Below are positions 17,094-25,133 of a stretch of DNA of 64,000 nucleotides, piece after piece. Source of the stretch: Candidatus Babeliales bacterium (lineage in GTDB: Bacteria; Babelota; Babeliae; Babelales; JANWKD01); the NCBI GenBank assembly GCA_963762115.1, contig CAVXJH010000006.1:320001-384000 (forward strand), written 5' to 3'. Position 1 is the first letter of the stretch, and the number at the start of each line of letters is the position of its first letter. Made by a program: the position numbers and the translations under genes. The notes under the pieces were generated by a model. The model searched no databases, was not told where the DNA came from, and saw nothing but the letters and a program-made list of their open reading frames with translations.

Positions 17094-20000
17094 TTAACTT
17101 CCAAAATCAATATTAGAAGGATCACCAGCAGCCGATGCTGTGCGATCACCAGTACTTTCAGAAGGTGGTGTGATTGTTTTATCATTGATTCCTTTACCTG
17201 TGTCAGGCCCTTTATTGCCTCCTGTAGGCGTGCTCGTGCCTCCTGATTTTGTGCCGCCGCCGGGTTTAATGAGGGGAATTGAAGGGGTCACCGTACCTTT
17301 TTGTTGGTAGATGCCACGAGCAGTGGTGATTGCTGACAATAATTCTGTTTCTAATGGCGGGTTGGTGTAGTTGCTTTGTAAAAGATTGAACATATCAATT
17401 CCTTGATTGATGGCAGCTTTATTGCCTTGTTTATAAAGATTCAAAGTTACTAAACTGAGCAAGCCATATTTTTTGTCTGGATGAGCTTGTATATCAGTAT
17501 AACTAATGCCCGGTTGATAATTTGGGTTATAGCTCGTGCCGCTGTCATCTAAAACAATAAAGACGAGGTAATCGAGAAGAATATTTTGTTTTGTGTCTTT
17601 GAGTGGTTGGCCCATGGTATCGGTTAATGGCATAGTGTAAATATATTGATAGTTTTCGATTGCTTTTTGGCTTGCAGGTTTTAGGGTGAATGGTGCAAAA
17701 GATACTTTCATATTTTGAGCGGAGTATGCTTTTTGTAGATTCTGAATGGTGGTTACCAATGAATCAGGAAGAGGGAATGTTTTTGTGTAGTTGGCAAACG
17801 CATCAGAAATTCTGAGTCCAGAATCGGTGCCATTATTGTTGAATGCTTTTTGTGTAACAAGACTTATAACATCATCACTTTCAAGTGGATATTTGCCAAG
17901 ATCGTTTACTCCATTTAAATCGGCATTGATGGTGCACATAACGATATAATCATCGATAGTATTTTCTGCATTATTTTTCAAATTTGTTGCTTGTGTGTTG
18001 TAGATGAAATGACCTTTGAGTATTTGATCTTTGGTGACAGCTTTTGGATTAAATGAGCCAACAGATGGATTAAGTTGGTAGGAAAGCAATTTGCGTGCAG
18101 CTGCTTCGCGTTGTATTGTAGGGGTGATTGTTATTATATTGGCATCATCAGGACTTGTTGAGCATGCTGTGGGTAAACTTTTGCAATAACCGTGTGCAGG
18201 GCGTAATGCTGGTATTGGTTTAACGGGAATTGTTGGTTTATTAATTTGATATTCAATTGCTGCGCCGGAAGAAATTACCCCAATTGTTTTTTGTGATGGC
18301 AATGCAGTTACGGCATACGATTGTGTTGTAACTTGTGTTGGCGCATCTTCTGACCAGAACTTGACTTGGAGTGTTGTGCCATTGAGCCGTGCATTGAGAT
18401 AATACCAAGTATTAACCGCAAAATTATTCGCTGGCATTGATTCTTTGAACCAACCTTTGCCTTCATGTTCATAGGCATTTACGCTAATAGGTTCGTTTAT
18501 CATTTCACGTTTGAATACTGCCATTTTTGCTAGATGATCCAGATCAAGATCGAGATCAGGACTTTTATTTTTATCAGTGAGTGCTGCAATATTGAGTTCT
18601 TTACCACCAATATAAATACCAATATAAAAACTATTTAATAAGTAAATTGCTTTAAATCTAATTTCAATTTCATTGACTGACTGTGCCATAGGAATTGTTT
18701 CTTTTTGATTAAACCAATTTTTACTCATTGTTTTTTTGCTCAAAAGTGAATCATTATTGCTTTGAGAAACCGCTTCAGGCATGACGGCAATTTCTTGACT
18801 AAAGCTAGTGCGGCCTGCGTTATATAATGAGAATCCTTGTGATGGATTAAGTTCATAGACTCCCGTTTGAATACCATACACAGAACCAACATCAGCATAC
18901 GCAAGCCCATAAGAATCGGGCGTTAAGAGTTGTGACCACCAATTTTCAAGCAAGAATGACATTTGTTCTTTTAATGCTTCAAAATTTTTGTTCATAAAGT
19001 TTTCATAAAAACCAACACTGCGTTCTTCGTTGCTTAATTCCGCTTGATATTTGAGTTGAAGTTCATTGGTGATTTCTGTTTGTTGTTGTTGGAAAATGAG
19101 TTCACTATTACCAATAAACGTACTAAATGTTTCAACAAAGGCATGTTGTTCATCTTTTTCATATTGTTTTAATTCATCTTCTTGGACTGAAGTAACAATT
19201 TGAATAATTTGTGGGCCAACCGTCATGGCAATCATAGGCAGAATAACCCATGCACTTGAGCCGCCAGTAAGCGGTATGGTTGCTAATAATAAGGCAGTGG
19301 TGATTACCGCATTAATGGTGCGCTCATTGGCGCTGAGTGTTTCGCGTGCATCTTGTGCAGCTTGGAAGGGATTAACATCATGATCGAATATCCAGCCAAT
19401 GCCTGCTCCAACAAATGCCGCTGCCGTTGATGCATCAATGAAAATTCGCGTGAGAATTGAAATGAAATATTGTGCATATTTGAGCGCATTCATGAGGTCA
19501 TCATAAAAGAATTTGAAGGTATAGGTGAGTTGATTAAGAATGGAAACGGCGGCATCGATGCCCATTTGTTTTAATCCATCGACAATTGCATTGCCCATGG
19601 ATTTATAATCACCGGCAACCAAATCGGTTGCTGTTTGCGCAATAAGCATAACAGCATCGGCACTTAATTTCATTACGCCGCCTACATCATATACGGCAAC
19701 ATTGGCTAAATCTGCCAAGCCATCAATAAGCATTTCATAGTCGGCGATAAAGGCTCCTGAAACATCGGTGCAAAGTTCTGAATCTTGACCAGCTAAAACA
19801 GTGTTGCAGACATCATTTATGCCGGCGCCGATATTTTCAACAAGTTCTGTAGCGACACCTTTAACGCCATGTATGGCAGTTGTTGCTGTTTCGATGACAT
19901 CATTCACCACTTTATTTAGATCCACGCCTGCTTTTTTCATATCATCAACAGCGTGTTTGCGTAATGTTTCTGCACTTTTTAATAATCTATCAGCATCTTG

Positions 20001-23582: not shown

Positions 23583-25133
23583 TTATTCAATTGATCCTGT
23601 ATCGTCGGTAATTCCCGATTGAGAGGAAACTTGTACTGCATTAAGAGCATTTTTAATGCCTTCTAAATAAGCGCTGCATGCTTTACAACTTCTATCATTT
23701 GGTTGTGCCATGCCAGCTTGTTGGGCAGCATTTTGAATAATGCAGCCAAGACAAGGATCAAGAATCGCTTCATGTTTGAAAACGGGATCAAAAAGAATTG
23801 AAAAATCACCTACACAGGCACGAAGCATTTTGATAATACCATCGTATGAGTTCATCCAAGCAGGCTGCTGTAACACTTCTTGCACATAAATATATTGCAT
23901 GGTCGGAATGTTAACATAGAGATGTTTTGCTTGGCCTATGTCTTTGGTTTTTTTTCCTTTTTTAGTGGTGAAATAAGCAAGTTGGATGGTAGATTCATAG
24001 CCAAATTTATCCTTGAGCGTTGATCCCGTTGTTGCAGATTTCACCAAAGCATCTGGCCAGGGAATGTTTGCAACATTTTTTGGTAAACTTTGTGCAATTT
24101 GAGGTATTAGTTTTAAAGCGCGTAGACTTGGTGTGTCGTAAAAAAAGAGTGGCGGATTAATTTGTTGAACGTTTTGCAAAGCTTTTAACGTATTAGTAAT
24201 ATTTTGTTTCTCGACTGATTTATCACTATTAAAGTTTGTATTAACTTGTGGTGTCGCGGTATCAATAATTTTTTTTATGCGTTGTGCATGGGCAACAAAG
24301 GTGTTAAAGCCGGTGCTTGAATCTTGTTTTGATAACGATGCGGCATACGCATTAAAAAATTTTAAATAGTTGCCAAGGAAGGTGAGGTATTGTGTTCGTT
24401 TTGTGTCATATGTTGGTTTTAACAAAACTTGCACTGAAGGGTCAGTAAGCAGTGTCTTTTCTGAATCTTTGAGCATCATATCGAGATTTGCACCATAATC
24501 ATTTTTCATGAGCATGGTACCTGTGTAGGTTGCAAGATGTTTAGGCAATCCTGCAGGAAATCGCGCTAATATTGCTTGATTTGATTGTGCTTCAATAATG
24601 CTAATAAGATGATTGATAATCAATTTCTTTTTTATTATGCAATTTTTGGTTTCTTCATCGAGGTATTGCTCAAGCGAATTGAGTGGCGTGAGATTAAAAA
24701 CGGTATAAATTTTGGTAAGATAGGTATACAATTCATGTAAATAGAGTACATGGATTTTGCTAAAATAAACGGTGAAATAGGTGTCTTCTTCAATACTTTT
24801 CAAAAAAGTATCGAGTGATTGACTTAAGTTTCCATCATCAGGAAATAACGTTCCTGCAGCAGGATGAACAACAATGGGCGTTGCTGTTTTGGTAAAACTA
24901 CAAAAACTTGTTTGAAATCCGTTGCCAACGGCAATGGGTACGTTTGATTTGCTTTTTGCATTCACGGTTCGGATGTTTGTTTTTGGATCAGGTGGGTGAG
25001 CAACCACCAGTTGTGAAAGAGTATATTTTCTACCCTGTTTGTCGCCAGGAAGGTTGCCAATGCCATGTAAAACATTGAAGTGAATTGCTAAAAAAATGAA
25101 GGCAATAAAGAGGGCATAGTTTTTAATATTCAT
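23583..25133 (-). CDS. Secreted hypothetical protein, 516 aa, first gene of the three-gene operon
   Basis: Signal peptide; GAGGA RBS; Cys cluster near the C-terminus; 19-nt gap to the next gene. Confidence 0.85.
   Translation of the reverse strand: MNIKNYALFIAFIFLAIHFNVLHGIGNLPGDKQGRKYTLSQLVVAHPPDPKTNIRTVNAKSKSNVPIAVGNGFQTSFCSFTKTATPIVVHPAAGTLFPDDGNLSQSLDTFLKSIEEDTYFTVYFSKIHVLYLHELYTYLTKIYTVFNLTPLNSLEQYLDEETKNCIIKKKLIINHLISIIEAQSNQAILARFPAGLPKHLATYTGTMLMKNDYGANLDMMLKDSEKTLLTDPSVQVLLKPTYDTKRTQYLTFLGNYLKFFNAYAASLSKQDSSTGFNTFVAHAQRIKKIIDTATPQVNTNFNSDKSVEKQNITNTLKALQNVQQINPPLFFYDTPSLRALKLIPQIAQSLPKNVANIPWPDALVKSATTGSTLKDKFGYESTIQLAYFTTKKGKKTKDIGQAKHLYVNIPTMQYIYVQEVLQQPAWMNSYDGIIKMLRACVGDFSILFDPVFKHEAILDPCLGCIIQNAAQQAGMAQPNDRSCKACSAYLEGIKNALNAVQVSSQSGITDDTGSIE

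Follow-up and report, generated by a model that had tools for sequence, protein, structure and literature searches.

A conserved five-gene secreted system, apparently undescribed, in about one-fifth of Babelota

The C-B-A operon

The window analyzed here is a 64,000-nucleotide stretch of the genome of a Candidatus Babeliales bacterium, phylum Babelota (assembly GCA_963762115.1, contig CAVXJH010000006.1, positions 320,001 to 384,000), and the genes of interest are three of its open reading frames (ORFs), C, B and A, which encode secreted proteins (Table 1). In the ORF list all three are minus-strand genes, with transcription running in the order C, B, A. The stop codon of B overlaps the first ATG of A, the spacing between C and B is 19 nt, and the likely start of A is Met11 (nt 21725), with GGAG upstream. 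The three genes form an operon; a scan for promoters and terminators gave results at chance level. Together with two unlinked genes of the same genome (G000; 1.53 Mb, 95% complete), which encode a giant secreted protein, D, and a secreted subtilase, the operon makes up a conserved five-gene system, apparently undescribed, in about one-fifth of Babelota.

Table 1. Features of the operon and of the two unlinked genes. Positions refer to the window unless an identifier precedes them; G, C and L numbers are our handles for genomes, contigs and loci.
Feature	Position	Strand	Remarks
Gene C	23583..25133	-	516 aa; first in operon; secreted, mostly helical; 48 true matches in 261 genomes, every one B-positive
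Gene B	21752..23563	-	603 aa; secreted; 49/261 genomes
B N-domain (res 21-227), predicted pro-domain	22883..23503	-	absent or replaced in 54/181 B sequences, 10 of the 54 truncated
B VQTQ-FW (res 228-233), predicted cleavage site after Q231	22865..22882	-	motif enrichment
B moderately hydrophobic helix (232-254) and hendecad stalk (255-335)	22559..22870	-	column hydropathy maximum 1.1
B beta head	21794..22531	-	likely ConA-like via homology to A head (hhalign E = 3.8e-6)
Gene A	17094..21755	-	1553 aa; secreted; last in operon
A N-domain (res 31-490)	20286..21665	-	compact, mostly helical; pLDDT mostly 75-96; pro-domain or payload
A VKVQ-GW (res 514-519), predicted cleavage site after Q517	20199..20216	-	motif enrichment
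A 11/3 amphipathic helices (518-760)	19476..20204	-	Ala/Gly/Asp-rich; length variable; low monomer model confidence
A hydrophobic hairpin (810-857), conserved T-G-G-A/S turn	19185..19328	-	column hydropathy 1.75 and 1.42
A ConA-like beta-sandwich head (res ~949-1175)	18231..18911	-	at tip of long predicted helix
A two C-terminal repeats	17286..18113	-	~130 aa each; common to protein D
Protein D	G000:C3:207675-213935 (L122:11676-17936)	+	~2086 aa; secreted; outside window
Subtilase	G000:C3:241169-242890 (L166:1123-2844)	-	secreted; beside dnaN-recF; outside window

Synteny, which the preliminary description of this DNA had proposed as a check, is conserved in all 81 loci that were fetched, many of them from shared genomes: C-B-A invariably occurs on one strand, mostly back-to-back with an M23 gene. 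The same description placed the operon beside M23-pilO-pilP-like genes. M23 is borne out by Pfam, but pilO and pilP have no Pfam or NCBIfam match and these labels are unverified; the link to M23, which 237 of the 261 genomes carry, is positional only. Among 61 sampled genomes, to which the count for A applies, A and B occur in the identical 19 and C in 18 of those 19. Across 261 genomes the B profile is positive in 49, and the C profile matches 48 of these; the B-positive genome that it misses is 64% complete. One additional C match, in G234, is spurious (E = 1e-4, internal stops), and a 977-aa "C+B fusion" in G045 is an artefact of an assembly gap. Searched against 1.84 billion proteins, the B profile returned 154 matches, and among the 150 listed all are B-family proteins or fragments as judged by profile coverage. 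The named relatives of A and B come from Candidatus Dependentiae/Babeliales. Searches of A, B, C and D against Pfam, NCBIfam, PHROGs, PADLOC and PDB sequences gave nothing usable, and no paper on this operon was found in the literature searched, where supplementary orthologue tables may list the genes as hypothetical.

Pairwise BLASTP finds no significant similarity between A and B (best E = 2.6). Comparison of family profiles, however, bears out the proposed match of their beta domains (E = 3.8e-6 over 61 columns, spanning the IGVISSGA/IGFMAAGC pair) and adds their N-domains (E = 1.8e-4, 37 columns), while the helical regions reach only E = 0.07, with ten unrelated pairings at 0.18-0.7. On these profile comparisons A and B are distant paralogues. 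The idea that C might be paralogous to A, B or D was rejected, every profile comparison being non-significant.

Several copies of the operon depart from the usual form. Genes are split at L023:11943-13739, L085 and L088: B has an internal stop in G004, C and A are fragmented in G099, and B and A are fragmented in one of two G068 copies; decay or sequencing error may be responsible. A 264-aa ORF in G016 (L037:9686-10477), missed by the B profile, weakly matches the B head region (E = 2.4e-4). In family f13 (L034:4657-8205, L036:13014-16868, L086:11547-15722), C contains an insertion of ~650-750 aa that Pfam does not match, and B has a long Ala/Glu/Thr-rich insertion directly behind the Q site that is described below.

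Domain architecture of A, B and C

Signal peptides of A, B, C and their orthologues were judged by eye, without SignalP, as hydrophobic N-terminal signal-like segments. The AlphaFold model of A covers residues 31-1200; its N-domain and its stalk-plus-head are confident, and most of residues 495-888 have a predicted local distance difference test score (pLDDT) below 50. The N-domain of A contains invariant Y, W, Q and P residues and is duplicated in tandem in three orthologues (L061:1878-5831, L062:11553-16559, L071:8347-13518). It has no match in Pfam, NCBIfam, PHROG or PADLOC, and the fold search barely probed it, the lectin head filling the result rows.

The short strings quoted in the preliminary description (VKVQGW, VQTQFW, both pairs of beta strands, and GGSS in A and B) are all found where it placed them. 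It had further proposed hydrophobic helices and a coiled coil in both proteins, and the membrane-active anatomy drawn from them finds support in the hydrophobicity of the hairpin and in amphipathic periodicity. The ~240 residues past the predicted cut site of A form an 11/3 amphipathic helix, with periodicity peaks at 97-99 degrees and a lag-11 autocorrelation of 0.22 (-0.02 in shuffled sequence). Weak profile matches of this region to phage tape-measure and tailocin FtbJ proteins (6v8i, E = 7e-4; 9j1k, E = 6e-3), with which it shares 11-residue amphipathic helical repeats, were rejected as evidence of homology and reflect periodicity, because designed helical bundles score better (E = 6e-6). 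No phage genes were seen in the loci examined. The GGSS of A (831-834) lies in the hairpin, in which G832 is invariant across 64 sequences. A transmembrane-grade hairpin is present in A only: a 19-residue hydropathy of at least 1.6 is reached by 87 of 90 A sequences and by 50 of 181 B sequences, and the GGSS of B is at 247-250. As to the coiled coil, a heptad peak is absent from the long helix of A (860-945), and the stalk of B is an 11-residue repeat instead (99-degree peak, lag-11 autocorrelation 0.23). A C-terminal transmembrane anchor was looked for and not found: past residue 857 of A no hydrophobic window rises above 1.3, and the only one that does in B is a beta strand (1.38).

The head of A is predicted to adopt a ConA-like lectin fold (pLDDT mostly 80-96). 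With VIA, it matches CBM66 (4b1m) at Z = 14.3, with a root-mean-square deviation (rmsd) of 3.2 over 157 aligned residues, and the thrombospondin-1 C-terminal domain at Z = 13.8 (rmsd 3.2, 166 aligned); the thrombospondin and galactocerebrosidase lectin domains score within 1 Z of CBM66. Foldseek matches legume lectins at E ~1e-4. The likeness to the CBM66, legume-lectin and thrombospondin domains is one of fold, whereas identity to the ConA-like matches is only 8-12%. Carbohydrate binding is predicted from this modeled fold, and no conserved GH16-type catalytic motif was seen in the alignments. The B head is likely ConA-like as well, given its profile match to A; its Atlas leads at 0.89-0.90, which include PelX_N and 3keto-disac_hyd clusters, serve as leads only. 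The lectin-like head is the only fold match obtained, no soluble enzyme was matched, and nothing that the preliminary description had listed as contrary to its reading was found. The lectin fold, the C-terminal repeats of A, which match each other at E = 2.3e-24, and the unlinked D and subtilase are parts that it did not contain.

Protein C is modeled with confidence (pLDDT 90.9) as mostly helical and has no transmembrane-grade segment. It has no Pfam or ESM Atlas match, and Foldseek gave no match at E <= 0.001, the rows for PaxB, ClyA, Hbl and SmhA being non-significant (E >= 1.1, TM <= 0.16). The best VIA score is Z = 5.0, no clear match, from which neither a new fold nor a lack of kin follows. 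A role as a soluble helper, chaperone or scaffold is likely.

Maturation sites and unlinked partners

Behind the N-domain of A, the linker cannot be aligned apart from a V-x-x-Q motif. Strict VxxQ followed by F/W is present in 53 of the 88 anchored orthologues (90 were examined), compared to 9.2% of random windows, and in most of the misses the Q is retained and position -4 is occupied by I, P, A or T. Among the 127 B sequences with an N-domain, the strict motif occurs in 53 and a loose form in 116, against 4.4% and 34% of random windows. The preliminary description had given the motif as V-x-x-Q-(G/F)-W; V-x-x-Q is conserved, but the W is not, and Q is followed by G, S, D, N or F. The 54 B sequences that lack the N-domain were sorted by eye: in 17 the signal peptide abuts the core, 16 carry another propeptide that ends in the motif, a further 10 are truncated, and 2 are ambiguous. 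Since the 17 begin where the post-Q residue sits in other B sequences, the mature N-terminus appears to be the conserved trait and the motif its cut site; we infer that V-x-x-Q is the maturation site of both A and B.

The motif predicted a co-inherited protease. G000 encodes one subtilase and one trypsin-like protease, and a co-occurrence profile was made for the subtilase. A signal peptide is present in this enzyme, its D-H-S triad is intact (IIDTG, HGT and GTS motifs), and it matches Pfam S8 at 89 bits (cut-off 21.8). The subtilases of 16 loci from 15 positive genomes form one cluster, and 15 of the 16 lie directly after dnaN-recF; the pre-catalytic region is very short in G000, G001, G005 and G013, with long N-terminal extensions elsewhere. 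Divergent from the subtilase is a gene for a DOT1-like methyltransferase with a signal-like N-terminus (L168:6966-7634 (+) and the equivalent L122:6966-7634 region; Pfam DOT1, E = 4e-26). A ~400-aa gene after the subtilase was ruled out as a component, as it occurs in positive and negative genomes (21/50) and was not found in G000; M23 was ruled out as the maturing protease on its presence in 237/261 genomes. Motif enrichment, B proteins without an N-domain and a co-occurring subtilase lend strong comparative support to proteolytic priming ahead of a hydrophobic peptide, in keeping with the processing originally proposed, and the subtilase probably matures A and B.

The repeat profile of A picks out a single further ORF of G000 (E = 3.8e-17), on contig C3, which encodes protein D, and profile-profile comparisons of the D and A repeats give E = 1.7e-10 and 6.2e-13. 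Besides its signal peptide and an N-terminal region rich in Ala, Gly and Glu, D has four or more repeats and a hydrophobic F-x-x-P-N helix that is conserved. Pfam gives no match to D, and a likeness of its hydrophobic helix to that of B is not supported (E = 0.24). In most of 21 loci D follows a block of thioredoxin-reductase and hydrolase genes and precedes a pepA-like gene. The alpha/beta hydrolase upstream of D was ruled out as a component (140/191). Secreted ~220-aa proteins encoded upstream of D (L127:4429-5097 and equivalents) look thioredoxin-like by eye, have no Pfam match, and are found in system-negative genomes too.

The D profile matches 49/261 genomes, 48 of them in common with B. 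The single genome with B and no D is 81% complete; the one with D alone also lacks M23, which points to an assembly gap. Pfam S8 matches 54 genomes, comprising every one of the 50 that carry B or D, plus 4 of the 211 others. The four outlier subtilases have no BLASTP link to the system cluster, and the three that were placed on a tree all fall outside it. System-negative genomes lack the genes at each site. A, B and C are absent from 18 of 18 M23 regions: uvrC immediately adjoins M23 in 7, is separated from it by one to three other genes in 5, and is not seen in the stretch in 6. The D slot is empty of D in 16 of 16, and D was recovered in 4 of 4 positives missed by a single query. The subtilase site holds no subtilase in 10 of 10, with recF directly against the next conserved gene in 6. 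On a quick M23 tree (63 rows, one system-negative row being a 59% complete genome), the pattern requires 8 changes, of which at least 5 are forced by well-supported branches. By these comparisons the five genes at three loci constitute one co-inherited secreted system, whose parts have been gained or lost together on at least five occasions, and repeated loss is more likely than transfer because the slots are shared. M23, the alpha/beta hydrolase and the ~400-aa gene, compared in like manner, do not vary together with the system.

These data bear on an alternative in which A is a self-delivering AB-type toxin, with the cleaved N-domain as payload, the helices translocating it, the head and repeats binding a receptor, and B, C and D as helpers. 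In the clostridial neurotoxins a similar order of N-domain, cut site, long helices and ConA-like domain is seen, and the order in A may be analogous; the N-domain is also compact, with its invariant residues and its duplication in three orthologues, and its fold is barely probed. However, the N-domain lacks the variation expected of a swappable payload, falls in no Pfam, NCBIfam, PHROG or PADLOC family and is homologous to the dispensable N-domain of B. We regard this reading as quite improbable.

Proposed mechanism and alternatives

The reading that we prefer, at a probability of roughly 0.55, is that a subtilase-matured, lectin-headed complex inserts into a host membrane, likely that of the food vacuole, and permeabilises or remodels it. 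Babelota are obligate protist parasites with many secreted effectors, and type II is the sole secretion system detected in them according to passages of PMC4378268 and PMC4776705; 44% of proteins are given signal peptides in those of PMC6561590. All five proteins carry signal peptides, and they would likely exit via Sec and type II secretins, two of which are encoded in G000. The subtilase would then cut A and B after V-x-x-Q and remove their N-domains, as suggested by the motif, the orthologues without N-domains and the co-occurrence. The ConA-like heads of A and B, the former a predicted fold, may bind host glycans. Finally, the 11/3 helices and hairpin of A and the single hydrophobic helices of B and D would insert, so that the membrane is permeabilised or remodelled. 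Assembly of the matured chains into one complex is predicted, with C as a putative soluble helper.

Several observations weigh against this proposal. The membrane-active part of A (residues ~495-890) is modeled at low confidence and no pore-forming fold is seen, the hydrophobic helix of B is marginal (median 1.45), and the sequence sets no constraint on which membrane is the target. Ala or Ser replaces the Gln in about 11 of 88 A orthologues (by eye), the motif is absent from 9 of the 54 B sequences without an N-domain, and D has neither a VxxQ pro-domain nor a matched lectin head. Co-occurrence, moreover, indicates one pathway and says nothing of one complex, and kin genomes are not independent.

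The matured proteins could alternatively be a surface adhesin or invasin, with the hydrophobic helices anchored in the bacterium's own outer membrane, the heads and repeats binding the host cell or vacuole wall, and no pore. Lectin heads on ~90-residue stalks and the tandem repeats of A and D fit such a function, the single hydrophobic helices of B and D could serve as anchors, and the outer membrane of the phylum is reported as degenerate (PMC4776705). An anchor, however, needs no pro-domain to mask it until proteolysis, and ~240 residues of 11/3 amphipathic helix directly past the cut are suited to active membrane binding. We consider an adhesin unlikely.

The preliminary description had likened the operon to type III secretion system (T3SS) translocators, multicomponent alpha pore-forming toxins and class I fusion proteins. 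As in YopB/YopD and PopB/PopD, a major partner has two hydrophobic helices (A 810-857) and a minor one has one (B 232-254, marginal). Unlike those translocators, the Babelota proteins have lectin heads and predicted proteolytic maturation. Kinship with them was dropped because the signal peptides are of Sec type and G000, 95% complete, has zero matches to the YscJ/FliF ring (PF01514), for which the control was positive in 4 of 14 genomes. Nor can the system be the phylum's universal route for effectors, because it is unmatched in 211 of 261 genomes.

The lack of a ring match also bears on a stable, non-lytic insertion into the vacuole membrane, like that of the chlamydial Inc proteins, by which mitochondria or other host organelles would be tethered or recruited. 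Incs are T3SS substrates whose hallmark is a bilobed hydrophobic segment, and A has such a segment beside a long helix. For the T3SS that Incs need, however, no ring gene was found here, and the lectin heads would remain lumenal. A host mitochondrion wraps one cultured member (PMC6561590). This alternative appears improbable.

The multicomponent alpha pore-forming toxins of the ClyA family (YaxAB/PaxAB, Hbl/Nhe, SmhABC) are likewise encoded in operons, as secreted helical paralogues whose hydrophobic segments are unequal, a hairpin being present in one. The Babelota system differs in its ConA-like heads, putatively cleavable N-domains, co-inherited subtilase and unlinked giant partner. No Pfam, NCBIfam or PDB sequence match to the family was found for A, B, C or D, and a check for a ClyA-like bundle met a helical region of A with pLDDT below 50 and only the non-significant rows for C.

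Class I viral fusion proteins have, as is predicted for A and B, a precursor cut by a subtilase before a Gly/aromatic amphipathic segment, long helices and a lectin-like head; the arenavirus GPC is reportedly cut by the subtilase SKI-1/S1P. In contrast to them, A and B have no C-terminal membrane anchor, are bacterial and are heteromeric by gene content, and the head of A follows the stalk towards the C-terminus and remains joined to the inserting portion. The heptad check gave no peak in A and a hendecad in B, and no viral fusion protein appeared among the listed BFVD rows. The system resembles protease-activated pore formers and class I fusogens, yet on these features it can be assigned to neither. 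A more specific form of the preferred reading, which we put forward tentatively and with the odds somewhat against it, is a needle-free translocon or fusogen, exported by Sec and type II secretion, built from four unmatched protein families and primed by its own subtilase in the manner of a viral spike.

A few other genes of the window were noted, some of them possibly host-directed. Between uvrC and clpB (12037-13212, minus strand) lies a secreted-looking ubiquitin C-terminal hydrolase (Pfam UCH, E = 2.7e-45), likely a host-directed deubiquitinase. Downstream of A (14670-17040, minus strand) are two secreted Gln/Glu-rich coiled-coil genes, one with ankyrin repeats, that have a near-identical internal stretch in common and whose position is not conserved in relatives. 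From 28543 to about 40500 on the plus strand, ~14 ORFs, each 170-330 aa long, are arrayed in tandem; in the first four, signal peptides are combined with C-terminal C2H2-like zinc-finger motifs, a resemblance to eukaryote-mimicking effectors.

These findings provide a parts list of five genes, distributed over three loci, in which a protease and its substrates are predicted down to the exact cut sites. If the complex inserts into membranes, it would represent a pore-forming or fusogenic architecture for which no sequence relative was found outside the phylum. How effectors act across the host vacuole membrane is left without explanation in passages of PMC4378268 and PMC4776705. One cultured species is described as growing inside a single vacuole; another moves from the food vacuole to the cytoplasm (PMC6561590). 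A split in lifestyle is predicted between system-positive and system-negative lineages. Should the translocon or fusogen be real, a subset of Babelota would open or fuse the host vacuole and thereby set its intracellular lifestyle.

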